Notes: generated from the sequence alone by a model not told the origin. A stretch of 64,000 bases of DNA from Pirellulales bacterium (GCA_040880125.1 JBBDJB010000025.1:34268-98267); one strand, 5' to 3'. Positions 19,718 to 58,580 are shown, counted from the stretch's first letter. Program-made: numbers and translations.

Positions 19718-19740
19718 GGCACAGACATTCCTGTCTGTGC
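19718..19740 (+). repeat. hairpin repeat family A copy (ggcacagacaTTCCtgtctgtgc)
   Basis: Perfect 9-bp stem GCACAGACA/TGTCTGTGC with a 4-nt loop. Intergenic, at the right edge of the low-GC island. Confidence 0.9.
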
Positions 19741-19775
19741 GTTTTGATCTCCGCCGATGGTCCACACAACGGACC

Positions 19776-20075
19776 CTACGGCTCGATCGCTTGCGCGATC
19801 ATCTCGCGCAGCGAATCCACCTCAACGCCGCTGATCAGAAAGCGCTTCTCCGGTGAGGTGGCGCCGCTGACCAGCTCGATCCGCCTCTTGGCCACGCCCA
19901 GCGTCTTGCTCAGCAGCGCGACGATCGCCTTGTTCGCCTTGCCCTTCTCCGGCGCTTGGGTTACCGAGACGCGGAGCATCCCCTGGCGGCAGCCTTCGAT
20001 CGCGTCTCGCCGCGCGCCGGCATGCGCCTTGACCGGCAGGATGACACCCTGCGGATGCGCTGCGAGCTCGATCAC
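19776..20075 (-). CDS. DUF167 (YggU-like) protein
   Basis: LRVSVTQAPEKGKANKAIVALLSKTLGVAKRRIELVSGATSPEKRFLI matches the YggU/DUF167 pattern. Overlaps the yggS stop by 4 nt. Confidence 0.8.
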   Translation of the reverse strand: MIELAAHPQGVILPVKAHAGARRDAIEGCRQGMLRVSVTQAPEKGKANKAIVALLSKTLGVAKRRIELVSGATSPEKRFLISGVEVDSLREMIAQAIEP

Positions 20076-20779
20076 GACGTCATCCTTTCGAACACCGCCG
20101 ACCCGACGCGCACGATGGTGGCCCCTTCGCGAATCGCCTCTTCAAAGTCGCCGCTCATGCCCATCGAAAGCTCATCCAGGCTCGCCCCTTCCGGCACGCT
20201 GGGCCGCAGGCGGTCGCGCAGCTCGCGCAGTTCGGCGAAGTTCCGCCGCGCGACGTCCGTCCCGCCGGTGCGGCTGGCCATCGTCATCAGCCCGCGCAGC
20301 TCGACGTGCGGATAGCCGGGCATCCGCTCCACCAGCGGCAGCAGTTCCTCCGGCTGCAGCCCCTGTTTCTCGACGTCGCCCGAGACGTTGACCTCCAGCA
20401 GCACCGCGCAGCGCCGCCCTAGCTGCGTGGCCTCGTCGTCGATCGCCTTCAGCAGGCGCGGGCTATCGACCGAGTGGATCAAGTGGACCAGCGGCAGCGT
20501 ACGCCGCACCTTGTTCCGCTGCAAATGTCCGACCAGGTGCCACTGGACCTGCGGATCGGACAGCGATTCGGTCTTCTGCCACAGCGACTGCGGCCGGCTT
20601 TCGCCCAACTGCCGGCAGCCGGCCGCGATGACGGCCCGCGCTTCCTCCAGCCCCACGTATTTGGTGACCACCACCAGGGTGACATCCCGCGCGGTTCGCC
20701 CGCTCATCGTGGCGGCCGCATCGATCCGCTCGTTGATGCGGGAGAGGTTCTCGGCGATGCGGTCGGGCGTTTCAGACAT
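20072..20779 (-). CDS. yggS: YggS-family pyridoxal-5'-phosphate homeostasis protein
   Basis: VTLVVVTKYV, WHLVGHLQRNK and LSMGMSGDFEEAIREGATIVRVGSAVF are YggS hallmarks. Confidence 0.9.
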   Translation of the reverse strand: MSETPDRIAENLSRINERIDAAATMSGRTARDVTLVVVTKYVGLEEARAVIAAGCRQLGESRPQSLWQKTESLSDPQVQWHLVGHLQRNKVRRTLPLVHLIHSVDSPRLLKAIDDEATQLGRRCAVLLEVNVSGDVEKQGLQPEELLPLVERMPGYPHVELRGLMTMASRTGGTDVARRNFAELRELRDRLRPSVPEGASLDELSMGMSGDFEEAIREGATIVRVGSAVFERMTS

Positions 20780-20806
20780 GGCCGCGCGAGGCTCGCCAGT
20801 TCACGG

Positions 20807-22983: not shown

Positions 22984-23859
22984 ATGTCGTACCACCACCG
23001 GGTCGGAATAACTGCGTCGGCGGCCTTGATGGCGATCGCTCTCCTGCTGGCCCCGGCCAACGTGTCCTGGGCACAGCTCATCGACGACGCCGAAGACCCG
23101 CCGGTCACCGAGGAGCAACTGGCCGCCCGCAAGCTCGCACCGCCCGAGGGTGCCCGACGGCTGGTGCCCGAGCACGATCTCTGGGTGGACCGCGAGAAGA
23201 AGCGGGTGTACATCGACGGCCGGATCTGCCTGCGGCGGGGTCAACTGGAGATGTTCGCCTGCCCGCAGGGGACGAAGGAGCACGAGTCGATCGTGGCGGC
23301 CAACACGAAGGCCCAGGTGGCGCACGCGGCGCTGCTGCTGGTCGGAGCGAAGGTCGGCCAGCCGGTGCAGTTCTCGCCCGAGTACGTGCCGGCCTCCGGC
23401 ACCGTGATCGAGGTGTACGTCATTTGGAAGGACGCCGAGGGCAAGCAGCACCGCGTACCGGCGCAGGAGTGGATCCGCAACACGCGCACCAAGGAGCCGA
23501 TGAAGCACAACTGGGTGTTCGCCGGCAGCGGCTTCTGGACGGACGAGACGGACGGCAAGCGATACTACCAAGCCGAGGCGGGCGACTTCATCTGCGTCTC
23601 GAATTTTCCTAGCGCCACGCTCGACCTTCCGGTCGAGAGCACCGCCGCCAACGCCGGGCTGTTGTTTGAAGCCCTGACCGAAAAGATCCCACCGCTCGGT
23701 GCCCCCGTGCGATTAGAGCTGGTCCCCAAGCTGCCGGAGGACGTAAAGGCGGAGGGTGCCGAAGCCGCTCCGGCTGAAAGCGATGCTGTCGAAAAGGCAT
23801 CGGCCGATGAGCCTGCGGGCGAGCCTTCTGCCGATTCCGCCGACGAACGCCGTAGTTGA
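22984..23859 (+). CDS. secreted protein, YdjY-domain-like, acidic C-terminal tail
   Basis: Signal peptide MSYHHRVGITASAALMAIALLLAPANVSWAQ. The core LWVDREKKRVYIDGRICLRRGQLEMFACPQGTKEHESIV resembles what I recall as the YdjY domain. Confidence 0.55.
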   Translation: MSYHHRVGITASAALMAIALLLAPANVSWAQLIDDAEDPPVTEEQLAARKLAPPEGARRLVPEHDLWVDREKKRVYIDGRICLRRGQLEMFACPQGTKEHESIVAANTKAQVAHAALLLVGAKVGQPVQFSPEYVPASGTVIEVYVIWKDAEGKQHRVPAQEWIRNTRTKEPMKHNWVFAGSGFWTDETDGKRYYQAEAGDFICVSNFPSATLDLPVESTAANAGLLFEALTEKIPPLGAPVRLELVPKLPEDVKAEGAEAAPAESDAVEKASADEPAGEPSADSADERRS

Positions 23860-23866
23860 AACAGCC

Positions 23867-23890
23867 GTAGCTGAATTCGTGAGAATTAAG
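23867..23890 (+). repeat. hairpin repeat family C copy (gtagctgaattcgtgagaattaag)
   Basis: Begins 8 nt after the stop at 23857-23859. CTGAATTC / GAATT(A)AG stem with a GTGA loop. Confidence 0.8.
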
Positions 23891-25431: not shown

Positions 25432-25455
25432 GTAGCTGAATTCGTGAGAATTCAG
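25432..25455 (+). repeat. hairpin repeat family C copy, perfect (gtagCTGAATTCgtgaGAATTCAG)
   Basis: 8-bp perfect stem with a GTGA (GNRA-type) loop. Lies between the kinase gene and the start of the low-GC island. Confidence 0.9.
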
Positions 25456-25467
25456 AGGAGTCCATGT

Positions 25468-25902
25468 ATGGGTGCCGCCTATTTCATCGTCCTCAACTCG
25501 GACGATCCGGGCTTCAACACCACCGTTGACGGCAAAGCATTGTCCCGTCATTCAGGACGGATCGACGCAAAAGCGAAAGTCCTGGGGTTCAAGTCGCTTG
25601 ATGAATACTGCAGTCAATCACCTGAAGATGCACGATCTTTGTTGGCGGACCTGATGGGAATGGAAGATGAAGATGACCTGCCGCCAGATGCCGAAGAAAC
25701 GCTAGGCAACTTACCGCCGGAAGAATGGTGTGATTCGGAGCACGGCATCGATTATGCGAAACGAGTCGGTGACGCGATCCGCCAGAATCCACAGGCAGTC
25801 GAGGATGCGGATGCCATCCTTTCCGATCTTGATTCGATGGTTGCAGTTCTGACGCAAGCAAAAGATCGGGGATTGAAGTGGCATTTGCAGGTCGACTTCT
25901 GA
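25468..25902 (+). CDS. small acidic hypothetical protein
   Basis: GAGGAG sits 8 nt upstream of the ATG at 25468. 144 aa with no signal peptide and an Asp/Glu-rich centre (MGMEDEDDLPPDAEETLGNLPPEEW). Lower GC than the backbone. No family recognised. Confidence 0.5.
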   Translation: MGAAYFIVLNSDDPGFNTTVDGKALSRHSGRIDAKAKVLGFKSLDEYCSQSPEDARSLLADLMGMEDEDDLPPDAEETLGNLPPEEWCDSEHGIDYAKRVGDAIRQNPQAVEDADAILSDLDSMVAVLTQAKDRGLKWHLQVDF

Positions 25903-26005
25903 TCTAATTGAATCGACGTGAAAAGCCAGCGACAAGCAGTTGAACGTGAGCGGCGGAGCACATCGCAATTGAAGCCACCGTTACGGGCCGCCGCCAAAGC
26001 CGCCT

Positions 26006-26905
26006 ATGGTGACGTCTATCGACGACGCGACGGTCGTGCTAAACAGGGACCATATGATGCAGTCGATTCTTGATTTCGCGGATCAACGATTTGTCGTACA
26101 TGACAACCTAGACGTATTGCGGGATCTCCATATATTGAAGTGGCCCGGCAAGAGATGCAACTTGGGAATCGCCCTAAATAAGGAGGTCGTAATTCTCAAT
26201 TGGCGTCGGATGGCAACGTACCGCGTTCAACTTTCCAACCTGGCCCACTATCTCGGCAAGGATATAAAACGTGTGCGTGTATACGCGTGTAGGTCCGAGT
26301 TGGGACCACCGTTAACAACCGAATATGTCAATCAGTATTTGTGTGGCAGCGAGGATAACCCGTATAGCGTGTGGAACTTGGTCCAGTACATGATGTCCTC
26401 AACATCGAGCCAGCACTTGACGCAGTTCCCTCCACTGCGATGTGACAAAGAGGATCAGGATGCGAGGATCGACGAAATGCGACGCCTGGCGCAACTTGGC
26501 GACGTGTTATTCAGTTTCGATAGAACTTCGGGCCTTTCCCACCTGATACGTCGGTATGATTGGTGCATGTGGTCTCACTGTGCCATGTGTTGTGGCAATA
26601 ATGATGTAGTTGAAGTATCCATAGACGGAGCCACGGAGTCAAACATTAGCGACTTAAATCGCCCCGGACTCGACGTGGGTCTATATCGGTTGAGTTCACT
26701 CGAACCGGCTGAGAACGGCGCGAAGGCTGTTGAAGCCATGCGAAATCACATTGGGCGAGAGGGGTACCCGTGGTTGGAAGTGGTGCTCATAGGAGTGCGA
26801 AAGAACCTACGCTGGATACGACGGATATTGCCAACGTCACAGCGTTCAATTACGCCTGCTGATCTGATGTATTCGAATCAGTTTAAGCTTGTCTGCTATG
26901 CTTGA
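26006..26905 (+). CDS. hypothetical protein; C-terminal half resembles a YiiX/YaeF-type permuted papain-fold (peptidase C92-like) domain
   Basis: GDVLFSFDRTSGLSHLIRRYDWCMWSHCAM aligns by eye with E. coli YiiX GDIIFQISRSSQSQAIQLATHSDYSHTGM. The C-terminal SITPADLMYSNQFKLV aligns with VVSPQAVFDAPQLTTV. The YCSEVV catalytic-Cys position reads PWLEVV here. The N-terminal ~160 aa are unrecognised. Low GC. Confidence 0.45.
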   Translation: MVTSIDDATVVLNRDHMMQSILDFADQRFVVHDNLDVLRDLHILKWPGKRCNLGIALNKEVVILNWRRMATYRVQLSNLAHYLGKDIKRVRVYACRSELGPPLTTEYVNQYLCGSEDNPYSVWNLVQYMMSSTSSQHLTQFPPLRCDKEDQDARIDEMRRLAQLGDVLFSFDRTSGLSHLIRRYDWCMWSHCAMCCGNNDVVEVSIDGATESNISDLNRPGLDVGLYRLSSLEPAENGAKAVEAMRNHIGREGYPWLEVVLIGVRKNLRWIRRILPTSQRSITPADLMYSNQFKLVCYA

Positions 26906-26963
26906 ATGATCAAGGTAGACTCTCGTCGGTTGCCGTGCCGCTATGGCGGATAACAGGCTGGCA

Positions 26964-27077
26964 CTGAGTACGACGCCGCGTTGTCCTGCGTAGTGTGCGC
27001 GTGCGCCGTTCGAGCCGCGGTTAAGCGTGGCGTCCTCGGGTCGTAGCCCGGCTGGCATTGATGTCGCCCGTGCCGGC
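26964..27077 (-). pseudogene. decayed fragment of an alkaline-phosphatase-family gene (paralogous to the 3' part of 32692..34020)
   Basis: Hand alignment: 26964-27035 versus 32780-32851 gives 56/72 identical. The fragment then lacks ~40 nt present in the intact gene, after which gggtcgtagcccggct is shared. No intact frame. This is a GC-rich patch inside a low-GC island. Confidence 0.5.
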
Positions 27078-27197
27078 AACGGGCCGCAAGAGGCTAATCC
27101 GCACGGGGTACAGCAACACGACCTCCACAATCTTGAATGATGCGGGCGCCGAAAACGCCGACCAAGTGCTGCACAGCTGATTGCCACGAGAGCAGTC

Positions 27198-27221
27198 GTA
27201 CCTGCATTCGCAAGAATTCAG
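27198..27221 (+). repeat. hairpin repeat family C copy, degenerate (gtacctgcattcgcaagaattcag)
   Basis: Matches the family C consensus at most positions. Intergenic. Confidence 0.55.
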
Positions 27222-27259
27222 GTACGGCTGACGTCCGACAGGAACTGTATCCTTGCACG

Positions 27260-27787
27260 TCACCCACCGTACCGATCAGGCGGCGTCGAACAAATCGGCA
27301 CTGGCGATTTGTTCGGGAGAAACGTTATTCGTACAACGTATCGTTCGCTGGCGGATTGATGAAATCGGGAGACGACTTCACAAACTTGGAAGTCGTCATT
27401 GTAAACAATCGGAAGATACGAAAAATCCATCCCGTGCGATCCGTCTAGTGTATCCATCACGCCGGAAACGTAGTCGAGCAAATCACGCCGAGGGTCCACT
27501 GCTGATGCAAATAAGTCGAAATCGAGTCCGATAGGGCCATGCGACCACGCACGATCGCCCATCGCCTCAAGGGCAGCCGTGCGTAGCGCCAGGAACCGAG
27601 TGTAGTGTCGGTGCTTCGGATTGCGAATCGAGAACGAAGTGTCCTTGAACGGAGGAAGGCCAAGAACATCGAGCTGGATGGACTCGCCTGGGCGCGATCG
27701 GTGCATAGTCGGGAGGCGGCCGGGATCGTAGGGGAGGACAAGAACTCGGTCTTCTTGGGTGGCTGATCCCATGTCAGGCTCCTTCAC
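27260..27787 (-). CDS. RusA-like (Holliday-junction resolvase fold) protein
   Basis: The ordered pattern LGLPPFK ... GPIGLDFDLF ... RRDLLDYVSGVMDTLDG ... IVYNDDFQVCEVV ... RYVVRITF mirrors RusA (PP..K, GPV.L.I.F, DLDN..K..DAL, DD.QV, final beta strand). The acidic spacing is DLLD rather than DLDN. Confidence 0.45.
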   Translation of the reverse strand: MKEPDMGSATQEDRVLVLPYDPGRLPTMHRSRPGESIQLDVLGLPPFKDTSFSIRNPKHRHYTRFLALRTAALEAMGDRAWSHGPIGLDFDLFASAVDPRRDLLDYVSGVMDTLDGSHGMDFSYLPIVYNDDFQVCEVVSRFHQSASERYVVRITFLPNKSPVPICSTPPDRYGG

Positions 27788-27816
27788 CCTAGATGATGCG
27801 GATGGTTAAACGTAAT

Positions 27817-27997
27817 CAAACGTCTCCCGCAGCGCGGCGGCCAGGTCGAGAAGCGGCTGTTCGCCTGGCCCGCTGTACGAGGAGCCGTGCATGACGGCCA
27901 GCGTTTGCGGCCGCAGGGCGGATAGCCCGCGCAAGATGCCCTCGGTCTGGCGGGTGTAGGGCATGTAGCCGGCCAGGGGACCGGCCTGCATCTGCTG
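27817..27997 (-). pseudogene. orphan duplicate of the 3' end of the MBL-fold gene (copy of 28966-29146)
   Basis: The 181-nt blocks align without gaps at roughly 90% identity. The fragment translates as [60 protein letters not shown], against the intact C-terminus [60 protein letters not shown]. The upstream part of the gene is missing. Confidence 0.75.
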
Positions 27998-28216
27998 TGT
28001 CACGCCGGCGGTGCAGACCAGGGGATGAAGCCGCCGGGAGTACCGCAAGTACCGCTGCGCCGGCCGATACTGCTACTATAGAGCGGCCGGGCGCTCCGCG
28101 AATCCCTAGTATATTAGTGGAGTTTAATCCAAGAAGTTTGTTGTACTTTCGGTGTTGTTCTGTTTACGATGGCCCCCAAAGGTCGCTTTTTACATCTAGC
28201 TGTGGGGGTTGTTCTA

Positions 28217-28888
28217 ATGAACCGCACTCGAATTCGACTCGCCATTGGTTGCCTGCTCTTGGTATGGGGAACCTCGGCTCGCGGGGAGCAAATCCTCGCC
28301 ACCCTCGTCGCGCCCGCCACGGATTTTGGCAGCCCGGGATTAGGCGTATTCGACGTGCAAGAGGTCGACCTCTTCATCGACCCTGCCGCGACAAATTGGA
28401 TCGCCTGGAATCGATTCGACGCGGTCATTGCCACCACGCCGCTGCGTCCCGGCGAGTTTCTGCTGGGAAACAACGCCACGGAAATCGATGACTTCTTTTC
28501 GCTGACCATCACCAATCCCGATGGCGCGACTTCAACCGCTTCCTACGACCGAAACGGCTCCTTTGGTGCGCCGATCGGTCAACAAGCGGTTATCTTCGGC
28601 TTAGCCGATATAACACCCGACGTCCTGCGGGGAGACAACTTTCGAACGCCGCAAGTCTTTGATGAAGGTGGGCAGCAGAACGAGATTTTCACCCGCGCCG
28701 GCGTCTACAATTTCGAGCTCAGCTTTACCGACATCGGCACCCTGGCTTCCTATCCGGATGTCTATTTCTTGGTCTCGGTGCCAGAACCCTCCACGGTATC
28801 CTTGGCGGCGGTCGGCGCATGCATCGCCGGTGCGATGCTTTTGTCCAGGAGGCGATCGGCAAAGCGCCTCCACCGACGCACAAATTGA
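28217..28888 (+). CDS. PEP-CTERM sorting-signal protein
   Basis: Signal peptide MNRTRIRLAIGCLLLVWGTSARG. The C-terminus VPEPSTVSLAAVGACIAGAMLLSRRRSAKR gives PEP motif + TM + basic tail. Confidence 0.8.
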   Translation: MNRTRIRLAIGCLLLVWGTSARGEQILATLVAPATDFGSPGLGVFDVQEVDLFIDPAATNWIAWNRFDAVIATTPLRPGEFLLGNNATEIDDFFSLTITNPDGATSTASYDRNGSFGAPIGQQAVIFGLADITPDVLRGDNFRTPQVFDEGGQQNEIFTRAGVYNFELSFTDIGTLASYPDVYFLVSVPEPSTVSLAAVGACIAGAMLLSRRRSAKRLHRRTN

Positions 28889-28954: not shown

Positions 28955-29680
28955 CTACTCCCCCTCAAACGTCTCCCGCAGCGCTGCGGCCAAATCGCGA
29001 AGCGGCTGCTCGCCTTGCCCGCTGTAGGAGGAGCCGTGCATGATGGCCAGCGTTTGCGGCTGGAGGACGGATAGCCCGCGCAAGATGCCCTCGGTCTGGC
29101 GCGTGTACGGCATGTAGCCGGCCAGGGGACCGGCCTGCATCTGCTGCATCGCGCGGCGGCTCGGCTCGACCAGGTCGGACGTGGTCAGCGCCGCCACGTC
29201 GCCGAAGTGGTGGAACAGGTCGGAGCAGAAGAGCGTCTGCCGGGTTTCCTCGAACAGCACGCCCGCGTCCCAGCCGTGCGGAATGTGCGGCGAGCGATAG
29301 AAGCGGTACCGGTACTTGCCCGTGGTGAGCACGTCGTCCGCCGTCATGCCGAGCGCGGGCCGGATGGCGAAGTCGTCGACATTGACCAGCTTGCCGACCA
29401 GTGTGCAGACGGGCTGGGCCTGCGGGGCGATCCGCAGCCAGTCGTTCAGCGCGCCGCATTCGTCCGACTCGAAGTGGCTCCAGGCGATGTGGCGGAGCGT
29501 GGCCGGATCGATCAACGTGGCGACCGCGTCACGCAGCGCCGGGAACATCGCCCGCAGGCCCGTGTGAAACAGCAGCGGCTCCTCATCGCGCACCAGGAAG
29601 TGATTGAACTGCATATCGAGCGGCGGGACGTAGATCGAGAGCCGGAACAGATCGGGGGCGATTTCGTCGATGGTGGCCAT
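28955..29680 (-). CDS. MBL-fold metallo-hydrolase-like protein (ODP/flavodiiron-type lactamase domain)
   Basis: Start placed at the ATG (complement of 29678-29680), giving [43 protein letters not shown] resembles the H.E.DH.G metal motif. The longer ORF to 29932 would read through a heptamer repeat and into the GT gene. Confidence 0.75.
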
Positions 29681-29683
29681 GTG

Positions 29684-29730
29684 CGGGGTTCGGGGTTCGG
29701 GGTTCGGGGTTCGGGGTTCGGGGTGCGGGG
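29684..29730. repeat. tandem heptanucleotide repeat (CGGGGTT)x5 + CGGGGTG + CGGGG
   Basis: Read directly from the sequence. It gives seven GGGG runs on the + strand (C-rich on the mRNA-sense strand of the MBL gene). It begins 4 nt upstream of that gene's start codon, and the unit length is not a multiple of 3. Confidence 0.95.
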
Positions 29731-29813
29731 CAGCCGACGCGTGTCGATTCCGTCGCGGCCGCCCGCTGAGGCTCGATGCACGGCCGGGTTTTTGCGTCGC
29801 GATACTCCCCGCG

Positions 29814-31094
29814 CTATCGCGTAGATTTCTGTTGAAGCACATTTTCCAGCGCATCGCAAGCGCGCTGAACGCCGCGCTCTTGGAGGACTTGCTGCCGGAT
29901 GCGAGATGCTCGCTCCGCATAGGCGGGATCATCGAGCAAGCGACTCAGTTCCGCCGCCGCGCGCTGCGGCGTGTAGCGGCCTTTGGTAAGCGTGCGAGCG
30001 ATGCCCAGCCGAGTGGCGCGATGGGCATGATCCGGTTGGTCCCACGCGTGAGGAACCACGAGCATCGGCCGGCCCGACCGCATGGCGTGGGCCGTCGTGC
30101 CGACTCCTCCGTGATGGACGATTGCCGCAGCCCGTGGAAACAGCTCCGCGTAAGGTGCGTATGGTGCGGCGATCACGCCCGGCGGCAGTGAAGTTAAGCA
30201 GTTGTGGCTCTGGCGGCCCACGATGAGGACTGCGCGGCGGTTCAAGATCTTCGCGCATCTCGCGCTCTGTTCGAAGAACGAGCCGGCGTGCCCGGAGACG
30301 GCCGAGCCGAGCGTGAAGACGATCGGCGGAGGCCCTTCCTCCAGAAAACTGGCTACCGACTCAGGCAGCGCTGCCTGGGTAGGTTCCTCGTAGAACGGAA
30401 AGCCGGTGAGGATCGTCTGCCGAGGCCAATCGGGCTGCCGTTCTGCGAGCAGACTGGAAAACAGCGCCAGAACCAGCAGCGGCGAGTGACTATCGAAGAG
30501 CGGATTGCCATCGGTCACCGGCGGGAGGCCGAGCTTCTTCCGCAGCCGGTACCAGTCTCTGCCAATGAATCGCGTGGCACGTTTTCCGAACCAGAGCAGC
30601 GGCCTCCACAATGCCGGACCGGCGACCCGCAGCTTGCGCGAGAGCAGCGGAGCGACATCGAGTACCGGCGGGTCGTGTGCGGACAAGAACACCAGCGGGA
30701 TGTGTACTGCCGAGACCCACGGGATCGCCGTCTTTTCTGCCACCAAACGCGCGGCGTAACTGGCGTGCATGGCGACGAGCAGGTCCGCACCTCGGGCTGC
30801 CGTCAGCGTGTCCTCATACGTTTCCGCAAGCGCTGGCATCACCAACTCGCGGCCGACGCGCAGCAAACCCCAGCGTGGATGGCTAAGCCGTCGAACCGCA
30901 TCGCCGTCCTGCAGCCAATCGCAGTCCGGACGCACCGAGCGGAACTCAAGCCCTAGCGACTCGACCTTTTCCCGATAGCACGGGCTGGTGGCCATAACCG
31001 CCTGGTGACCGCGCCGGTGCAACTCGAGGGCGATCGCCAGGTAAGGGTGCAGGTCGCCCAACGAACCCCAGGTCGTGATGACAATTCGGCTCAT
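29814..31094 (-). CDS. GT1-family glycosyltransferase (UDP-glucuronosyl/MGT/rhamnosyltransferase-like)
   Basis: [33 protein letters not shown] and [31 protein letters not shown] match the GT-B donor-binding signature. Confidence 0.85.
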
Positions 31095-38400: not shown

Positions 38401-38418
38401 CACTGCTGGCTTGTCCCA
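38401..38418 (-). repeat. hairpin repeat family B copy, degenerate (cactgctggcttgtccca)
   Basis: Reverse-complement relative of cacggctggacaagccagccgtg. Intergenic, at the left edge of the low-GC orphan gene. Confidence 0.45.
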
Positions 38419-39924: not shown

Positions 39925-40017
39925 AACGCCGTGGCTGTTTTGCACGATCGCTGGGTGCCACGGCTCACCTGGTCCCCGTCGTGAACAATACGACTGGACA
40001 AGCCAGCCGTGGCACCC
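39925..40017. repeat. cluster of hairpin repeat family B copies (full copy 39993-40017 actggacaagccagccgtggcaccc; inverted partial copy 39953-39965 gggtgccacggct)
   Basis: Read directly from the sequence. Shares GGCTGG-acaag-CCAGCC + GTGGCACCC with 42106-42134 and 58552-58580. Confidence 0.75.
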
Positions 40018-40035
40018 CCGGAAGCCGGCCGCGAT

Positions 40036-40060
40036 GCACAGACAAGAATGTCTGTGCCAC
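40036..40060 (-). repeat. hairpin repeat family A copy (gcacagacaagaatgtctgtgccac)
   Basis: 9-bp stem. The loop is agaa, versus ggaa in the consensus in this orientation. Lies 24 nt downstream of the ABC-2 permease stop. Confidence 0.85.
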
Positions 40061-40911: not shown

Positions 40912-40912
40912 G

Positions 40913-41740
40913 TTATCCTCCAAAACCGCTGTAGCGCCGCTGGCCACGATTCAGCGCAATGCGGCAGAGGACCATAAACACCCCGACCCAGGCCACCTGA
41001 ATCCACATCCCACGAACCAGCTCCGCCCCCTCGATCTTGCCCAGGAATACCGCCGCGGGGAAATACGCCAGGTACTTCAGCGGAATCAGGTCCACTAACT
41101 GGTTCCACGGCGCCGGCAGCATGTCGAGCGGGAACATGTGCCCTGAGAAGAAAAAGTTGAACAGCATATAGACGAACAGCAGCGAGCTGACTTCCAGGAA
41201 CCAGAAGCCGACCATGCCGATCGTGGCTTCCAGGAAGAAGCCCAGCAGGAACGACAGGATCAGCGAGACGATGTACAGCCCCAGCACCTCTGGCTCGGGC
41301 CAGCCGTGGAAGTAGCCGCGGCAGAGGAAAAACACCAGCGCGAACGGCCCGGCCGCCACGGTGTAGTAGACCAGCTTATGGGCAATACGGTTGAGCAGCA
41401 GAAAGCCGATCATGTCGATCGGCTGGATCATGAACTTCTTGATCTCGCCGTTGCGGATCTGCAGCGCGATGCCCGAGGCCAAACCCGGCATGCTGGAAAA
41501 CGCCCGGGTGATCATCGTCAGCAGGTAGTAGGCGACCATATCCTGGTAGGCATAGCCGGCGATCTGATCGCGGCCGCCGTACGCTTCGATGGCGGAGAAG
41601 ACGGCCGACCAGAGGAAGATCTGGGTCACAATCGGCAGGAAGCGCATCAGCGTGCCCAGTGCGAAGTCGCCTCGATAGACGAGGCGCTCCTCCAGGCAAA
41701 TCCGCATAATGGTCCACCAGGTGGCAACTCGGGCAATCAT
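40913..41740 (-). CDS. ABC-2 family transporter permease
   Basis: Start set at MIARVATWWTIMRICLEERLVYRGDFALGTLMRFLP (ATG complement of 41738-41740). The 170-aa N-terminal extension of the listed ORF is translated repeat DNA (HRQECLCHNDASEKG appears twice) and is rejected. Confidence 0.75.
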   Translation of the reverse strand: MIARVATWWTIMRICLEERLVYRGDFALGTLMRFLPIVTQIFLWSAVFSAIEAYGGRDQIAGYAYQDMVAYYLLTMITRAFSSMPGLASGIALQIRNGEIKKFMIQPIDMIGFLLLNRIAHKLVYYTVAAGPFALVFFLCRGYFHGWPEPEVLGLYIVSLILSFLLGFFLEATIGMVGFWFLEVSSLLFVYMLFNFFFSGHMFPLDMLPAPWNQLVDLIPLKYLAYFPAAVFLGKIEGAELVRGMWIQVAWVGVFMVLCRIALNRGQRRYSGFGG

Positions 41741-41856
41741 GTAGTTACTTGGCTTGCGTGTCGAAAAGGGGGACTGACTCGATGCACGAGTACGTCTTTC
41801 CTCTTGTAAGACCTGCCCCGCATCGAGCCAGTCCCCTTTTTCGCTCGCATCATTAT

Positions 41857-41879
41857 GGCACAGACATTCCTGTCTGTGC
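41857..41879 (+). repeat. hairpin repeat family A copy (ggcacagacattcctgtctgtgc)
   Basis: Perfect copy, embedded in the ~60-nt direct repeat 41825-41885 / 42024-42083. Confidence 0.9.
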
Positions 41880-42054
41880 GCGGTGTTGGTACCCCCTTTC
41901 CCCGCAGGGGCGAGGGAGTAAGCCGCGGTAGATGCGGCCATGGATTCGGCTGAACTCTCGCGAGCGCGAGCTACGGGCGAAAGACACGACCGTGAAAAGG
42001 GGGACAGGCACTTCGCTGCGCTCAGAGCCAGTCCCTTTTCACTCGCATCATTGT

Positions 42055-42077
42055 GGCACAGACAATCTTGTCTGAGC
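42055..42077 (+). repeat. hairpin repeat family A copy, degenerate (ggcacagacaatcttgtctgagc)
   Basis: Second copy of the ~60-nt direct repeat, with stem mismatches. Confidence 0.7.
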
Positions 42078-42105
42078 GCGGTGCGGGGGGAACGCTGTCT
42101 CAAGG

Positions 42106-42134
42106 CACGGCTGGACAAGCCTGCCGTGGCACCC
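42106..42134 (+). repeat. hairpin repeat family B copy (cacggctggacaagcctgccgtggcaccc)
   Basis: One stem mismatch. Lies 28 nt after family A copy 42055-42077. Confidence 0.8.
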
Positions 42135-42692
42135 AGCGCGGTGCCGAAGCAAAAAGCGGGAACGTTTATAAAAGGAATGAGTGCGAAAGTGACAGCCGGC
42201 TGCACGCGCCAGCGGGGGCAAGTGCTTGCGACATACACGCCGGCCGCCACCTCGTTATTCTCTTCCCGCGGTGTGGCGGGTGCAATCCTCCTTACGGGGG
42301 CGCTCGGACGTCGACCGATTCGATAGCGCGCAAAGTTGTCGACTGTATTCGGTAGCGCGCGAAGTTCTTGTAAACGGCAGGCCGGCTTGTTACCGTTGGC
42401 CTCGCACGGCTAGTTCTCTTGCCCGCACCCGGGCCGTGCGCTTGGGCCGTACGGAAATAGCCAACAGGAGTCGTTTCCCGCCACACTTCACGTCATTGAC
42501 CCGAAGGGAGATTCGGTCATGCAAACTTCCGGCACCTACCCGGATGTCACACCCCAGACACGATGTCACGCACTCAGTAATCCCATCTCAAGACCACGCT
42601 TATCACGGCAAAACGCAGCGGCGGCTGAGCTGCGCGGTGAGAAGTCGCCGCTTCGCCGCGCCGTTTGTGAACTGCGTGTCGTTTCCATCGGC

Positions 42693-46385: not shown

Positions 46386-46423
46386 CTGAATTTGCCGGTG
46401 TAGCTAAATCCGTAAGAATTCAG
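46382..46423 (+). repeat. hairpin repeat family C, composite/duplicated copy (gtagctgaatttgccggtgtagctaaatccgtaagaattcag)
   Basis: The stop codon TAG (46383-46385) of the upstream gene lies inside the repeat. Confidence 0.7.
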
Positions 46424-46603
46424 CCCCGCCGTAAGCCCGCTTTAGAGATCGCACCCGCGCGCAACTCCTAACTTCGCCGTCGCCCAATCGCGCGAGTGAG
46501 CTCAGCACGTTTCGACGCAGCTCCCGCCCGGGTATAATGTTGCCACGTGCCAACTCACCTGCCCGGAACCTGATTCCCCCACATGATCCGCGAGGAGCCT
46601 GCC

Positions 46604-47863
46604 ATGCGCGCGGCGCTGCTGCTTGCCCTGCTGATACTTCCCGCCCCCGTCTTTGCCGGCGACGCCTGGCCTCAGTTCCGCGGGCCCGCCGGCGACGGGA
46701 CGTCCGACTCTACCCGGCTGCCGGTGACCTGGAGCGAAACGGAAAACGTCATCTGGAAGACGCCCATCCACGGCCGCGGCTGGTCGTCGCCGGTCATCTG
46801 GGGCGATCAAATCTGGATGACCACCGCCACCGAAGACGGCAAGCAAATGTTCGCCGTATGCGTCGACCGCCAGACGGGCCGCATCCTTCATGACATCAAG
46901 CTGTTCGACGTCGAAAACCCCCGCGAAATCCACCAGCTCAATAGCTACGCGTCGCCCACGCCGGTCATTGAGGAAGGCCGCGTCTATATCCACTTCGGCA
47001 GCTACGGAACTGCCTGTCTGGGTACGACGAGCGGCGAAGTCCTATGGTCGCGCCGCGATTTGCCGTGCGACCACTTCCGCGGGCCGGGCTCGTCGCCCAT
47101 CCTGTTTGAAGACACGATGATCGTCCACTACGACGGCTTCGACTACCAGTATGTCGTCGCGCTCGATAAGCAGACTGGCGAAACGGTGTGGAAGCGCGAC
47201 CGCGACATCGAGTACGGCACCGACAACGGCGACTTCATGAAGGCCTACTCGACCCCGCAAATCATCGAGGCGGCCGGCAAGCTACAGATGATCAGCGCCA
47301 CCTCGAAGGCGGCCATCAGCTACGACCCCCGTACCGGCGAGGAGATCTGGCGGATTCATTACCCCGAATTCTCGGCCACCGCGCGGCCGCTGTTCGGTGA
47401 GGGGCTCGTGTTCATCAACACAGGCTTCGGCAAGGCCGATCTGTACGCCGTGCGGCCGGACGGCACGGGCGACGTGACCGACAGCCACGTCGCCTGGGTG
47501 TGCAAGCGCAGTGTTCCCTCGAAGCCCTCGCAGTTGCTCGTCGACGGCCTGCTATACATGGTGCACGACGCCGGCGTGGCCAGTTGTCTGGACGCGAAGA
47601 CCGGCGAGAGCGTCTGGACGCAGCGCCTGGGCGGCAACTTTTCGGCCTCGCCGCTGGCTGCCGACGGCAAGCTGTACTTCCTCAGCCACGATGGTGACGT
47701 AACGGTCGTCAAAGCCGGCCGGGACTACCAGGTGCTGGCGATCAACCGGCTGGACGACGGCTTCATGTCCTCGCCCGCAGTCTCCGGCCGCGCGCTGTAC
47801 GTTCGCACGCGCTCGCACGTGTACCGCATCGAGCAGCCTGCCGACGTCGCCTCCGGCGGTTAG
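46604..47863 (+). CDS. PQQ-like/BamB-like beta-propeller repeat protein, exported
   Basis: Starts MRAALLLALLILPAPVFAGDAWPQFRGPAGDG, followed by repeated W/G beta-propeller blades. Confidence 0.8.
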   Translation: MRAALLLALLILPAPVFAGDAWPQFRGPAGDGTSDSTRLPVTWSETENVIWKTPIHGRGWSSPVIWGDQIWMTTATEDGKQMFAVCVDRQTGRILHDIKLFDVENPREIHQLNSYASPTPVIEEGRVYIHFGSYGTACLGTTSGEVLWSRRDLPCDHFRGPGSSPILFEDTMIVHYDGFDYQYVVALDKQTGETVWKRDRDIEYGTDNGDFMKAYSTPQIIEAAGKLQMISATSKAAISYDPRTGEEIWRIHYPEFSATARPLFGEGLVFINTGFGKADLYAVRPDGTGDVTDSHVAWVCKRSVPSKPSQLLVDGLLYMVHDAGVASCLDAKTGESVWTQRLGGNFSASPLAADGKLYFLSHDGDVTVVKAGRDYQVLAINRLDDGFMSSPAVSGRALYVRTRSHVYRIEQPADVASGG

Positions 47864-47902
47864 GAAGCCCTTCAGTATAGAAAGCGACGGCAACCCATTA
47901 GT

Positions 47903-47925
47903 GGCACAGACATTCCTGTCTGTGC
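47903..47925 (+). repeat. hairpin repeat family A copy (ggcacagacattcctgtctgtgc)
   Basis: Perfect copy 40 nt after the stop of the propeller gene, at the left edge of the low-GC sigma/anti-sigma patch. Confidence 0.9.
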
Positions 47926-48232: not shown

Positions 48233-48955
48233 CTAGCCCACGTGCTGCTGCATCAACGCATCAACATCATCTTTCTGCTCGATCGCCACCGGTAGGGATC
48301 CGCGTCCCATAAACGCAAACCAGGTTTTTGCCTGTAGCATCAGTGTGGCGTCCGTTGTGCCTTCCCAGCGATAGCTTTCGATCTTACTCCATCGCAGTAA
48401 ACTCCAATACTGCCACACTCCGTTTTCACAAAATCGCAATCTACCCGTCGATGTAATCATGAAAAACGATGCGAAAGTGAAAAGGAACAGGGAAATCAGA
48501 ATCGCGAATGCATCGGTGGACGCCACGAGCGAGCAAATGGCGCTCATGCAAAGAAAAACCGACATCGTGAGGAACATTTTCCTCGATGGGTGTGGCCCGC
48601 AGTCAAGCAGTAAATAGCCAGCGCGTGTACGCCCCATCAGCATCGAAACGAGAAAGGCTGAGAAAGTGACGGCCCAAACAACGCCAAATGTACCACCCAC
48701 AGCGAAAATCATACTTATGTGAAACAGCTTGCTGATCGCCAGTGAAACTGCACCGACTAACGTGTACATGACCGCAGCGACGATTGCTGCGTTTACCATA
48801 CCGCGTCGGTGCGCGGTTTTCGTCATCACAATCGCTTCAGCCGCTTGAAGGCTGCGCTGAAGCGAATCCTCTGGCATCGGTTCTGAGCGAAATCCATCCA
48901 TCATTGCGCTAAATTCAGAAGACATCTCATTCTCCCATTTCTTGTGTTCGGTCAT
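48233..48955 (-). CDS. membrane protein, probable anti-sigma factor, with a C-terminal bacterial-PH-like domain
   Basis: Its start overlaps the stop of the ECF sigma gene (TGATG). Four TM segments. The C-terminus RLRFCENGVWQYWSLLRWSKIESYRWEG...LMLQAK...LPVAIEQKD looks bPH-like. Low GC. Confidence 0.55.
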   Translation of the reverse strand: MTEHKKWENEMSSEFSAMMDGFRSEPMPEDSLQRSLQAAEAIVMTKTAHRRGMVNAAIVAAVMYTLVGAVSLAISKLFHISMIFAVGGTFGVVWAVTFSAFLVSMLMGRTRAGYLLLDCGPHPSRKMFLTMSVFLCMSAICSLVASTDAFAILISLFLFTFASFFMITSTGRLRFCENGVWQYWSLLRWSKIESYRWEGTTDATLMLQAKTWFAFMGRGSLPVAIEQKDDVDALMQQHVG

Positions 48956-49461
48956 CAATCAGACTCCCTGAGTGCGTCGAATACCTCACGCAGTTTCGCT
49001 CGTGCTTTGTGCAGAGCCATTGCGACGGCACCATTGGTAATTTCGAGAGTGCTTGCTATCTCGTCATGAGAAAGTTCTTCGAAGTGCACAAGGCAAAACA
49101 CCGCGGCTTGGCGCGGTGGCAAATCTGCCACGATCGATCGCAAACGGAGCGTCTCTTCGTGGTTGATGACCGTCGCTTCCGGCCCGGCGGCTGGATCCCA
49201 TAGTGATGAGTCCTGTATTGGCGAATTGTCAATCGAGTCGGTGATGCGCCGCTTCCGCAGCAGATCAATCGCCCGAAACGTCACCAATCGGTTCATAAAG
49301 GTTCTTGGGTGCGAGATCTCGCCACGCACAAAAAGTTCATGTGCTTCGATAAAGACTTCTTGCAGTACATCTTCACAATCCTGCGGATGCCGGAGAATTC
49401 GCCACGCCACCCGATACGCTGGTGGCCCATGCTCGCGAACAATTTGATTCCAGTTCGTCAC
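48955..49461 (-). CDS. ECF-type RNA polymerase sigma-70 family factor
   Basis: Region 2 is YRVAWRILRHPQDCEDVLQEVFIEA. Region 4 is PPRQAAVFCLVHFEELSHDEIASTLEITNGAVAMALHKARAKL. Confidence 0.85.
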   Translation of the reverse strand: MTNWNQIVREHGPPAYRVAWRILRHPQDCEDVLQEVFIEAHELFVRGEISHPRTFMNRLVTFRAIDLLRKRRITDSIDNSPIQDSSLWDPAAGPEATVINHEETLRLRSIVADLPPRQAAVFCLVHFEELSHDEIASTLEITNGAVAMALHKARAKLREVFDALRESD

Positions 49462-50064: not shown

Positions 50065-50580
50065 ATGGCACTGCCGGTCGATAGAAGCCTGGTAGATCGA
50101 TTGGTGGTCGAGCACTTGCCCGCCGGATTGCACTTTGCGCTGCGTTTGACCGGCAACGAGCACTCGGCGGAAGACGTGATGCAGGAGGCGTTGTGCCGTG
50201 TCTTGCGGCAATGGCGTTCCTTTCGCAGCGAGGCGAGCTTCAAGACCTGGTTGTTTCAGATCGTGGTCAACGTGGACCGCGACCGCCGCAGGCGGCGGAC
50301 GTTCGAGACGCTCGACAGGGAGCCCGCCTGTCCGCTTGCAGAACCGGCCGATCGTCTGGCCGTGGACGAGATGGACCATCGGGTTCGCGACGAAATCGGC
50401 CGCCTGCCCGACCGGCAGCGCGAAGTGGCGATTCTGTGTTTGGGTGAAGGAATGCGTGCGGAGGAAGTAGCGACGATCTTGGGAATTACCGAGCCCAACG
50501 TCCATAGCAGTTTGCACTTGGCGCGAAAGCGGATCGCAAAGGCGATCGGGTTCGACTACGCCCCGCAGAAACGATCATGA
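50065..50580 (+). CDS. ECF-type RNA polymerase sigma-70 family factor
   Basis: Region 2 is ALRLTGNEHSAEDVMQEALCRVL...FKTWLFQIVVNV. Region 4 is LPDRQREVAILCLGEGMRAEEVATILGITEPNVHSSLHLARKRI. Confidence 0.85.
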   Translation: MALPVDRSLVDRLVVEHLPAGLHFALRLTGNEHSAEDVMQEALCRVLRQWRSFRSEASFKTWLFQIVVNVDRDRRRRRTFETLDREPACPLAEPADRLAVDEMDHRVRDEIGRLPDRQREVAILCLGEGMRAEEVATILGITEPNVHSSLHLARKRIAKAIGFDYAPQKRS

Positions 50581-56678: not shown

Positions 56679-56864
56679 CGGCGTAACGGCTGCCCGGCAA
56701 ACGGAGATGTCTGCAGAAAATTATGGTAGTGGAAATACACTAAACCACCCGGCTTTCGCGCCTGGCCTCCGGCACGGTTCGAATAGCACCAGTTCAATCA
56801 AACGGAAGGGAGTTTTTCAACACTTCTTAAAAATGGGTGTTGCAGAAACCTGACGAAAAACATC

Positions 56865-56885
56865 CCCGCGCCGCAGCGGCGCGGG
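56865..56885 (+). terminator. GC-rich perfect hairpin CCCGCGCCGC-a-GCGGCGCGGG followed 13 nt later by TTTTT
   Basis: A 10-bp stem is seen directly. The T-run is not adjacent to the stem, so terminator function is uncertain. Confidence 0.3.
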
Positions 56886-57051
56886 CTTCGGGATGCTGCT
56901 TTTTCAACGAAACATGGGGCCCCCCTTAAAGGCGCGTTGCAAAAAGCCGCGGGAGTCCGAGCGCGTACGGCGACCGCGGTGCAGGTCTGGATTCCTCATG
57001 AATTCGGCGACAATTACGCGGGGACGGCGGACGTGGGGGTAAAAGAAGACC

Positions 57052-57076
57052 GCACAGACAGGAATGTCTGTGCCAC
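57052..57076 (-). repeat. hairpin repeat family A copy (gcacagacaggaatgtctgtgccac)
   Basis: Perfect copy in inverse orientation, ~75 nt upstream of the DUF1501 start. Confidence 0.9.
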
Positions 57077-57152
57077 GTTCAAATCATGATGACACAGGCA
57101 GAAACGTCTGTACGGCGCTGCGATGGCAACCTCGGGATGTGGAGACCTCGAC

Positions 57153-58463
57153 ATGGCTGGAAAGAATAACGACGCTTCGGCTCGCACTGGCTCGGCCGTG
57201 TCGCGGCGTGGGTTCATGCAAACCGCGGCCGCCGCGGCGACCGCCATGGCCGCCGACATGACGCTGCTGGACGCGCTCAAGTCGCCCGCGCTGGCCGACA
57301 CGCTCAAGTCGCAGGGCAGGAGCGTCATCCTGCTTTGGCTCGCTGGCGGCGCCAGTCAACTCGAAACGTGGGATCCCAAACCCGGACGCGCCACCGGCGG
57401 CCCGTTCGCTTCGATTCCCACCGACGTGCCGGGCGTGCAGATCTCCGAGCTGATGCCCAAGCTTGCCCAGCGGATGAAGCACACCTGCCTGATCCGCTCA
57501 CTGAACACGGGCAACGCCGACCACGGCGGCGCGGCCACGCTCTTGCACCTGGGCCGCAGCGACCGCTCCGGCGTGCAATACCCGGACCTGGGCGCCATGC
57601 TCGCCCGTGAGCTGCGCCGCGCCCACAGCGACGTGCCGGACTACGTCTCCTTTTACACCTCGACCGAGGGCCGCGGAAACGCCGTCGGTCAGGCCGGCTT
57701 CTACGGCTCGCGCTACTCGCCCATGTTTCTCACTACCAACTCGATGCCCGAGAACATCCAGAAGCTCGAGGGCATCACCGAGGTGGATCATCTCCAGCGG
57801 GCTGAGCTGCGCAACCTGCTCAGCGAGCGCTTCGCCCGCGGACGCCAGACCGACGCGGTCGGCAGCCACAACGAGGCCTACGCCCGGGTGCGCGGCGTGA
57901 TGGCCAGCGAGAAGCTGTTCGACGTGCGGCAGGAACCGGAGCACGTTCGCCAGCGCTACGGCCCCACGCAGTTCGGCGAGCAAGTGCTGGTGGCCCGGCG
58001 GTTGGTCGAAGCCGGCGTGCCGTTCGTCAAAGTCGGCCGTGCGTGGTGGGACAGTCACGGACAGAATTTCGAGACGCACCTGGAGTTGGTCAGCGAACTG
58101 GATCACGTCATGAGCACGCTGTTGGACGACCTGGCCGAGCGCGGCATGCTGGAGTCGACGCTGGTGATCACGCTGGGCGAGTTCGGCCGTACGCCGCACA
58201 TCAACGCCAGCCTGGGCCGCGATCACTTCGCCCGGGCGTGGAGCGCCTCGCTCTCCGGCTGCGGCATCCAAGGCGGCGCCGTCTATGGCAAGACCGACAA
58301 AGACGGCAATGAAGTCGTCGAGGGCGAGGTCGGCGCGGCGGAGCTGTTCGCCACGATCTTCCGGGCCGTCGGCATTGATCACGAGAAGGAATATTTCCTC
58401 GGAGCCCGGCCTATTCCGCTGACCGAGCCGTACACCGAACCGATCCGCGCCGTGCTGGCGTGA
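57153..58463 (+). CDS. DUF1501 domain protein (sulfatase-fold), Tat signal
   Basis: SRRGFMQTAAAAATAMAA is a twin-arginine signal. VILLWLAGGASQLETWDPKP and GEFGRTP are DUF1501 hallmarks. Confidence 0.9.
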   Translation: MAGKNNDASARTGSAVSRRGFMQTAAAAATAMAADMTLLDALKSPALADTLKSQGRSVILLWLAGGASQLETWDPKPGRATGGPFASIPTDVPGVQISELMPKLAQRMKHTCLIRSLNTGNADHGGAATLLHLGRSDRSGVQYPDLGAMLARELRRAHSDVPDYVSFYTSTEGRGNAVGQAGFYGSRYSPMFLTTNSMPENIQKLEGITEVDHLQRAELRNLLSERFARGRQTDAVGSHNEAYARVRGVMASEKLFDVRQEPEHVRQRYGPTQFGEQVLVARRLVEAGVPFVKVGRAWWDSHGQNFETHLELVSELDHVMSTLLDDLAERGMLESTLVITLGEFGRTPHINASLGRDHFARAWSASLSGCGIQGGAVYGKTDKDGNEVVEGEVGAAELFATIFRAVGIDHEKEYFLGARPIPLTEPYTEPIRAVLA

Positions 58464-58517
58464 GAAACGCACGTGCGCAAGTTCTTGCAACTCAATTGTA
58501 AAGGCTGCGAAAGAGTC

Positions 58518-58542
58518 GTGGCACAGACATTCCTGTCTGTGC
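58518..58542 (+). repeat. hairpin repeat family A copy (gtggcacagacattcctgtctgtgc)
   Basis: Perfect copy 55 nt after the DUF1501 stop. Confidence 0.9.
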
Positions 58543-58551
58543 GACCCAAAA

Positions 58552-58580
58552 CACGGCTGGACAAGCCAGCCGTGGCACCC
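58552..58580 (+). repeat. hairpin repeat family B copy, perfect (CACGGCTGGacaagCCAGCCGTGgcaccc)
   Basis: 9-bp stem with a 5-nt loop. Lies 9 nt after the family A copy. Confidence 0.9.

Follow-up and report, generated by a model that had tools for sequence, protein, structure and literature searches.

What are the short hairpin repeats that recur between the genes of a 64,000-nt stretch of DNA from a Pirellulales bacterium (GCA_040880125.1 JBBDJB010000025.1:34268-98267; the whole stretch is here referred to as the window), and what accounts for their presence? The initial annotation had described two families with perfect stems, A and B, between positions 19,718 and 58,580, had labelled them as resembling repetitive extragenic palindromic (REP) elements, and had suggested that they act as terminators or insulators or as preferred insertion or recombination sites. 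The label was right: family A and a third family, C, show a GT[AG]G tag together with a short hairpin, and in other genomes family A brackets genes encoding REP-associated tyrosine transposases (RAYTs). We consider it very probable that families A and C, and probably B, are REPs, non-autonomous mobile hairpins that are copied or maintained by a RAYT encoded elsewhere in the genome. The best-supported part of this reading is that family A is the cognate hairpin of one RAYT subclade.

The family A hairpin in the window and in other genomes

Family A reads GTGG-CACAGACA-TTCC-TGTCTGTG-C, in which a GTGG tag abuts the 5' side of a perfect 8-bp stem (9 bp if the outer G-C pair is counted) that encloses a 4-nt loop. 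We searched the window with the pattern GGCACAGACA-N4-TGTCTGTGC, using 100 dinucleotide-preserving shuffles of the same 64 kb as a control. The pattern matched seven times in the window, with starts at 19718, 40036 (minus strand), 41857, 42055 (one mismatch), 47903, 57052 (minus strand), and 58520, and not once in the 100 shuffles. These are the seven copies that had been reported, the last of them under a start of 58518 that counts the preceding GT. A fuzzy search recovered two further, degenerate copies (13089-13113 on the minus strand and 57089-57113 on the plus strand), for a total of nine in 64 kb. The GTGG tag abuts the stem directly in six of the seven pattern matches, and the hairpin folds as single-stranded DNA at -9.9 kcal/mol (z = -3.6). 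The published search rule for REPs specifies GTAG or GTGG 0 to 2 nt 5' of a 7- to 20-bp stem with a 2- to 5-nt loop (PMC6006769), and the anatomy of families A and C fits this rule, which argues for their membership among the REPs. It likewise agrees with the "GTAG-tagged" REP superfamily of Di Nocera et al. (PMC3733652). The tag at the prescribed distance is GTGG in family A and GTAG in family C and is lacking from family B; the short palindrome within the prescribed limits of stem and loop, foldable as single-stranded DNA, was found in family A. Like REPs in general, the repeats are numerous and extragenic, with nine A, three B, and five C copies in the window.

To place family A among other organisms, we scanned a single genome from each of 185,579 species with its 19 fixed bases, for which about 4 matches are expected by chance at uniform composition (596 Gb × 2 strands / 4^19). 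Among the matches listed, the exact hairpin occurred in at least 109 loci from ~54 assemblies, closed chromosomes included. These listed loci belonged to Thermoanaerobaculia (41 loci), other Acidobacteriota (18), Planctomycetota (32, including the isolate Gemmata algarum JC673), Verrucomicrobiota or the wider Planctomycetes-Verrucomicrobia-Chlamydiae (PVC) group (7), Ignavibacteria/Kapaibacterium (8), and Lentisphaerae, Eisenbacteria, and Sumerlaeota (1 each). The host genomes span 31 to 68% GC. The presence of this hairpin and its RAYT clade in at least seven bacterial phyla is the unusual point of the finding.

The oriented consensus of 184 matches, rGT-GGCACAGACA-nTCy-TGTCTGTGC, is the same in all taxa. 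The loop is typical of the taxon, being CTCT or CTCC in Thermoanaerobaculia, TTCC or TTCT in Planctomycetes and Ignavibacteria, and ATCC in Pirellulaceae and some Acidobacteriota. The tag reads GTGG in 172 of 250 core matches and GT[AG][AG] in 230 of them. Stem covariation was evident at the stem base, where two pairs change in a compensatory manner across genomes (CA/TG, GG/CC, GA/TC, AA/TT, CG/CG, and AG/CT); pairing was retained in 234 of the 250 core matches, whereas shuffling the partners gave 174 on average and never more than 185. Inverted A doublets with spacers of 9 to 100 nt are present in many genomes, including those of Gemmata algarum, Planctomycetaceae, and Thermoanaerobaculia. 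Exact A hairpins also occur, one or two per contig, on 17 IMG/VR viral contigs (L116-L132), mostly with the CTCy loop typical of Acidobacteriota; no RAYT was found within the stretches of these contigs that were fetched. A literature search with the hairpin string matched only unrelated eukaryotic primer and miRNA papers, and Rfam gave no match at the gathering score anywhere in the window and nothing relevant at E ≤ 1 over 57000-58700.

The same comparison bears on whether the motif is a regulatory site to which a protein binds, such as a palindromic operator or a sigma-54 promoter (TGGCAC-N5-TTGC), given that GTGGCACAGACATTCC resembles the -24 TGGCAC element with TTCC 5 nt later. We regard this as extremely improbable. 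The full promoter consensus (TGGCAC-N5-TTGCW) has an invariant GG at -24 and GC at -12, whereas the -12 GC is absent here and the loop that would have to supply it varies by taxon, reading TTCC, CTCT, or ATCC; a sigma-54 promoter was rejected on this ground. Moreover, most copies follow stop codons, in either orientation, and the motif flanks RAYT genes in arrays and doublets.

RAYT genes flanked by the family A hairpin

At a locus from a Verrucomicrobia metagenome-assembled genome (MAG; L098), the RAYT core is bracketed on both sides by REP doublets, which include the exact A hairpin and a compensatory variant, CACAGGCA/TGCCTGTG. At a locus from Acidobacteria (L075), a family A copy lies ~40 nt after the stop codon at the RAYT C terminus. 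The L098 RAYT has 1,418 homologues at E ≤ 1e-10, most of them with PF01797 and several named by JGI "REP element-mobilizing transposase RayT." In an alignment of 13 homologues, H113-V114-H115, Y173, and N177 are invariant and P178 nearly so, and the flanked proteins carry the HUH and Y...NP motifs and the PF01797 domain of RAYT/Y1 transposases. Peptides encoded by REPs stand at the ends of ~45 of the 120 best RAYT gene calls. Further loci show the same bracketing in several forms. The RAYT genes of L110-L112 are flanked by GTGG-GGCAGACA-TTCC-TGTCTGCC hairpins and by hairpins beginning GTGG-AGCAGACA, inverted and with their tags pointing away from the gene; that of L114 has eight tandem GTAG-CACAGGCA hairpins upstream and GTAG-CACAGACA-TTCC-TGTCTGTG doublets downstream; and that of L115 is flanked by GTGA-CACAGACA hairpins.

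Scanning metagenomes with the RAYT alignment yielded 80 more loci, which we split at 50% identity to the L098 RAYT. Nearly all of their RAYTs are flanked by hairpins, and the sequence of the hairpin follows that of the protein. The core CAGACA-nTCn was found within 350 nt of 13 of the 14 RAYTs that are at least 50% identical to that of L098, compared with 2 of the 66 more distant ones (Fisher p = 4.5e-12). Altogether, the exact A stem lies beside a RAYT at L098, L075, L114, L115, L133, L134, L135, L137, and L141, and compensatory variants do so at L110-L112 and L193; a RAYT gene flanked by copies of one hairpin, the "REPtron" layout, is therefore present in other genomes. On two metagenome contigs of 32 to 33% GC (L135 and L137), the RAYT genes are flanked by CACAGACA-TTCC-TGTCTGTG with a GTAA tag. 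The hairpin is unchanged even in these genomes, so its sequence is maintained against genomic base composition. The RAYT of an acidobacteriotal locus (L033) was not used as evidence because it is not directly flanked by family A.

By analogy with Escherichia coli TnpA-REP (PMC6006769; PMC3479197), the RAYT, an HUH/Y1 enzyme with PF01797, would bind the folded single-stranded hairpin, recognize its GT[AG]G tag, and cleave and reseal the strand at an adjacent point. New copies would be expected to persist where they are harmless, mostly just after stop codons and in long intergenic regions, and whatever effect they may have on mRNA 3' ends would be incidental and not the reason for the repeats' existence.

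The layout of these loci also speaks to the possibility that the hairpins are the termini or relics of something other than a single-copy, domesticated RAYT system, namely an autonomous insertion sequence (IS) of the IS200/IS605 type or a further family of miniature inverted-repeat transposable elements. In some genomes, two near-identical RAYT genes share a chromosome (cluster 1), RAYT and REPs have been inserted together inside restriction-modification genes, and the A copies on the 17 viral contigs would likewise suit such an element. However, the RAYT genes have symmetrical flanks, with GT[AG]G-tagged REPs on either side in place of distinct left and right IS ends; the loci read contain neither tnpB nor any further passenger gene; and hairpin copies far outnumber transposase genes. 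We therefore consider an autonomous element very improbable.

Several features of individual RAYT loci were recorded alongside. At L098 (671-4856), a complete doublet-RAYT-doublet unit is inserted in frame within a 1,395-codon open reading frame (ORF), with no stop codon throughout. The RAYT core occupies 2211-2786, and REP doublets lie at 1465-1524, 2146-2208, 2788-2841, and 3253-3309; two doublets besides those of the unit are likewise in frame. The ORF, a type IIG-like restriction-modification/methylase gene, bears the motifs FYTP...DPAVGSG...NPPY. The array upstream of the L114 RAYT (9647-9852) comprises eight GTAG-CACAGGCA-TTCC-TGCCTGTG hairpins with a period of 25 to 28 nt, immediately adjacent to the gene. 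At L115 (6064-15478), a RAYT of the same clade lies between hsdS and an AlbA_2/Schlafen-like gene in a type I restriction-modification operon with the order hsdM, hsdS, RAYT, AlbA_2, hsdR. Several JGI RAYT matches carry the name "type I restriction enzyme R subunit," which may reflect either faulty annotation or an association that recurs. "Candidatus Hydrogenedentes" is among the taxa of the RAYT matches.

Placement and arrangement of the repeats in the window

Genes in the window were called by third-position GC, and their products include PSCyt2/PSD1, DUF1501, and WD40 proteins. Judged against these calls, all copies are intergenic, as had been claimed, and the reported tendency to lie shortly after stop codons is borne out by four intact A copies, at 23, 35, 37, and 54 nt. 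Two of the remaining intact copies (41855 and 42053) are in a divergent promoter region and one (57052) precedes a gene. The positions of all repeats are given in Table 1.

Table 1. Hairpin repeats and one affected gene call in the window
Feature	Position	Strand	Remarks
Degenerate family A remnant, 5 mismatches	13089..13113	-	105 nt past stop of polysaccharide-synthesis gene 11487-12983
Family C, degenerate stem, GTAG tag	19689..19712	+	Directly upstream of A at 19716
REP family A, intact	19716..19740	+	35 nt past stop of DUF167 gene (19776-20075, -)
Family C	23867..23890	+	8 nt past stop of gene 22984-23859
Family C, perfect: GTAG-CTGAATTC-GTGA-GAATTCAG	25432..25455	+	
Family C variant, GTAC at both ends: GTAC-CTGCATTC-GCAA-GAATTCAG-GTAC	27198..27221	+	
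Family B, TACGACTGG-ACAAG-CCAGCCGTG-GCACCC, 2 mismatches	39989..40017		
REP family A, intact, loop TTCT	40036..40060	-	23 nt past stop of ABC-2 permease gene 40084-40947(-)
Artefactual 5' extension of ABC-2 permease ORF 40913..42250	41801..42250	-	Domain at residues 205-443 only
REP family A, tag ATGG	41855..41879	+	Within artefactual N terminus of ORF 40913..42250
REP family A, 1 stem mismatch (TGTCTGAG), variant loop ATCT	42053..42077	+	
Family B, 1 stem mismatch	42106..42134		
Family C	46400..46423	+	15 nt past stop of gene 45333-46385; partial duplicate precedes at 46382
REP family A, intact	47901..47925	+	37 nt past stop of PQQ-like beta-propeller gene 46583-47863(+)
REP family A, intact	57052..57076	-	46 nt upstream of DUF1501 gene
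Degenerate family A, ATGA-CACAGGCA-GAAA-CGTCTGTA, 5 mismatches	57089..57113	+	Decayed partner of 57052
REP family A, intact	58518..58542	+	54 nt past stop of DUF1501
Family B, perfect 9-bp stem, 0 mismatches	58552..58580		

The hairpins at gene ends could be taken to exist primarily as transcription terminators, mRNA 3'-end protectors, or insulators, selected there. Four of the seven intact A copies and three C copies lie 8 to 54 nt after stop codons, the stems are stable (-9.9 kcal/mol as DNA, with z about -3.5), and E. coli REPs stabilize upstream mRNA. An intrinsic (Rho-independent) terminator, however, combines a GC-rich hairpin with an immediate T/U-tract on the transcribed strand, and no consistent T-tract follows these stems. 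A terminator scan of 39.5 to 59 kb returned 17 sites, compared with 18.1 in shuffles, and flagged just two REP sites, 57073(-) and 58574(-), each of them on the strand that has no gene upstream. Copies also lie in the divergent promoter region and upstream of a gene, as noted above. In addition, a structural terminator would not hold an identical sequence and an asymmetric GTGG tag over seven phyla and 31 to 68% GC, and it would not bracket transposase genes. The terminator or insulator role suggested in the initial annotation is thus unlikely.

The repeats affect both gene calls and assemblies. The ABC-2 domain of ORF 40913..42250 covers only part of the predicted protein (Table 1), and the N-terminal ~190 codons cross two A copies and one B copy; the extension is artefactual because it is read-through of these repeats, in agreement with the earlier remark that they inflate this ORF. 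An independent Logan assembly contig from the same organism (L213) is 100% identical to positions 58514-64000 and extends ~1.6 kb past the end of the window. Its start lies 4 nt ahead of the A copy at 58518, and its other end falls within a further A copy outside the window; being bounded by A copies in this way, it implies a high copy number. Family A repeats break assemblies.

The A copy at 41855 belongs to a ~60-nt unit that is repeated 198 nt downstream. In the two units, at 41820-41885 and 42018-42083, the A copies share ~35 nt of 5' flank (GAGCCAGTCCC-TTTT-C-CTCGCATCATT) and 6 nt of 3' flank, and the pair is a local duplication, ~198 nt apart, of a unit that exceeds the hairpin.

Family B, searched as CACGGCTGG-ACAAG-CCAGCCGTG, gave three matches (39989, 42106, and 58552) against 0.07 expected, and these are the three main copies that had been described. 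The two copies listed as degenerate, at 38401(-) and 39953(-), are mere half or tail fragments, no better than those in shuffles. Read on the minus strand, the family is GTGC-CACGGCTGG-CTTGT-CCAGCCGTG, a GTGC tag with a 9-bp stem and a 5-nt loop. A repeat finder recovered families A and B and added family C, with unit starts at 19685, 23863, 25428, 27194, and 46396. Family C had been named earlier without a sequence; it is real and reads GTAG-CTGAATTC-GTGA-GAATTCAG, with five copies in the window. A single GTAGCTGAATT match at another locus (L004) was considered as a B or C copy elsewhere and is probably due to chance.

The composite units of A and B have the spacers originally given, of 28, 9, and 18 nt. 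From the minus-strand GTGC reading of family B it follows that the units at 42053-42134 (28-nt spacer) and 58518-58580 (9-nt spacer) are inverted heterodimers with their tags outward, while the unit at 39989-40060 (B at 39989 and A at 40036, 18-nt spacer) is a tandem pair. As single-stranded DNA, the A+B unit folds at -22.9 kcal/mol (z = -4.6). The GTGGCAC element that A and B were said to share follows from the tags of the two families, corresponding in A to the tag and the start of the stem and in B to the reverse complement of the GTGC tag next to a stem with GTG at its end. The A copies at 57052(-) and 57089(+) form a doublet with tags pointing inward. In all, the window has this one decayed A/A doublet, two A/B inverted heterodimers, and four singletons.

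Several observations weigh against the reading of these families as REPs served by a RAYT. We found no RAYT in the 64-kb window, either with a motif regular expression or by tblastn with two RAYTs, and there is no RAYT-flanking case among Planctomycetota-labelled genomes, the bracketed RAYTs being those of Verrucomicrobia, Acidobacteria, and metagenome contigs. Most A copies in the window are singletons and not the inverted doublets (REPINs) that are thought to be the mobile unit. The tag of family B is GTGC and not GT[AG]G, and the family was found in none of the other loci examined; its REP membership is weaker for both reasons. The stems of family C are mostly imperfect, and it too was found in none of those loci. 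Finally, the cleavage chemistry proposed for this RAYT clade is carried over by analogy. If the families are nevertheless REPs of this kind, this Pirellulales genome would carry a RAYT of the family A subclade, acting in trans and spreading the copies.

The window contains four islands of low GC at third codon positions (16767-19313, 25444-27787, 38553-39824, and 48233-49461), and the initial annotation had placed a repeat at an edge of every low-GC patch and read the repeats as preferred insertion or recombination sites. As a description this holds for four of the eight island edges, which bear A, B, or C at 19.7, 25.4, 40.0, and 47.9 kb; the patch named at 57.05 kb is merely an AT-richer intergenic region. 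On this basis, low-GC islands acquired horizontally might have integrated or recombined preferentially at sites that the repeats mark or themselves provide, and some insertion sequences do target REPs. The enrichment is not significant, however, with repeats at four of eight edges and in 7 of 34 other intergenic regions (Fisher p = 0.11, or p = 0.49 for regions of at least 150 nt). Repeat presence instead tracks intergenic length (median, 312 nt versus 103 nt; Mann-Whitney p = 0.002), so the island-edge pattern does not go beyond what long spacers explain, and no significant association is left once length is considered. Seven repeat-bearing regions are not beside islands, the islands contain no integrase or IS gene, and the sole visible duplication scar (27816/28965) is without A, B, or C repeats. 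A role at island edges is accordingly very improbable, though a genome-wide test could yet reveal an edge effect.

That scar is a 190-nt direct repeat, 92% identical between its copies at 27816-28005 and 28965-29154, in which the 3' end of an ODP-family metallo-beta-lactamase-like gene (28955-29932, -) has been copied as a fragment of 80 codons (27806-28048). Between the copies sits a PEP-CTERM protein gene (28169-28888), and the whole looks like an insertion or duplication scar without REP involvement. A GGGGTTC tandem repeat of about seven units (29681-29729) lies in or at the edge of gene 28955-29932. The product of the island gene at 16767-19313(+), which has a third-position GC of 0.52, is an AAA_15 ATPase of 848 aa with matches to the anti-phage families Old, AriA, and GajA (PADLOC Old, E = 1.6e-25); the gene probably serves in defence and was probably acquired horizontally. 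Two ECF-type sigma factor genes, 48955-49461(-), which lies in a low-GC island, and 50065-50580(+), diverge across a 603-nt spacer without a repeat.

Relation to known REP-RAYT systems

REPs and RAYTs are well described (PMC2817692, PMC3116915, PMC6006769), and RAYT groups have a patchy distribution and are transferred horizontally on long time scales (PMC5581495). Like the REPs and BIMEs (bacterial interspersed mosaic elements) of E. coli and their transposase TnpA-REP (a RAYT, YafM; 4ER8), the present hairpins have GT[AG]G directly 5' of the stem and extragenic copies that often lie just past stop codons, and in both systems the transposase, an HUH and Y...NP enzyme with PF01797, is encoded by a gene bracketed by inverted REPs (PMC6006769). 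The E. coli REPs, by contrast, are longer and bulged, whereas the stem here is a perfect 8 to 9 bp with a 4-nt loop and the sequences are unrelated; the hosts are Enterobacteria in one case and PVC bacteria, Acidobacteriota, and Ignavibacteria in the other; and the RAYT described here has an N-terminal RRNLPHW...YWVTFRL region. The REPIN-RAYT system of Pseudomonas fluorescens (Bertels and Rainey 2011; PMC3116915) resembles ours in having several REP families per genome, inverted doublets (found for family A in many other genomes), and a separate RAYT clade for each hairpin family. It differs in that singletons dominate in the window, where the two clean doublets are A+B heterodimers, and in that REPINs have been described as lineage specific and mostly vertically inherited, whereas the A hairpin is common to several phyla. 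The IS200/IS605 elements, with their Y1 transposase TnpA, belong to the same HUH/Y1 superfamily and share subterminal hairpins that are recognized as single strands and a guide tetranucleotide beside the hairpin; the present hairpins differ from them in showing no distinct left and right ends and no tnpB and in being dispersed as solo copies far from transposase genes.

Also close are the GTAG-tagged REPs of the PVC superphylum in Di Nocera et al. 2013 (PMC3733652), which describes the families GTAG-17 to -20 (mostly GTGG) in Opitutus terrae, GTAG-20/21 in Rhodopirellula baltica, and others in Planctomyces spp., together with GTGG tags, homo- and heterodimers, in-frame intragenic insertions, and some families common to distant organisms. 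Tagged REPs had thus already been demonstrated in Planctomycetes and Verrucomicrobia, and the breadth seen here (Acidobacteriota, Ignavibacteria, and others) exceeds the list of organisms in that paper. None of the six reading-frame peptides of family A appears in its table of intragenic REPs, and no A peptide or sequence was found in its supplements; this is a comparison of peptides and not of consensus sequences, and it does not establish identity of A with any of the 24 families. Nunvar 2010 makes no mention of the phyla that carry the A hairpin.

The hairpins are ordinary REP elements and reveal no new kind of element. What is noteworthy is their breadth, one hairpin and one RAYT subclade over at least seven phyla and a wide range of GC content. 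To our knowledge, REP-RAYT systems have been studied almost only in Proteobacteria. We suggest, as a tentative proposal that falls short of being our expectation, that the RAYT subclade and its near-invariant hairpin, GTrr-NNCAGACA-nTCy-TGTCTGNN, may have spread horizontally across these phyla, at 31 to 68% GC, as a self-contained REPtron, possibly carried by phages in view of the 17 viral contigs with copies. If so, the family would rank among the most widespread of REPs, run counter to the view of REP/REPIN populations as lineage specific and vertically inherited, and offer a natural series for the protein-to-hairpin recognition code of HUH transposases.

For annotation, the hairpins inflate ORFs by adding such peptides as QTFLSV, TDIPVC, and QTGMSV to gene calls, and masking them would improve gene models in MAGs of Planctomycetota, Acidobacteriota, and Verrucomicrobiota. 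For the biology of the family, the graded compensatory variants track RAYT divergence and so provide a comparative data set on hairpin recognition by HUH/Y1 enzymes, and the cross-phylum pairs of hairpin and RAYT bear on whether such systems move horizontally.

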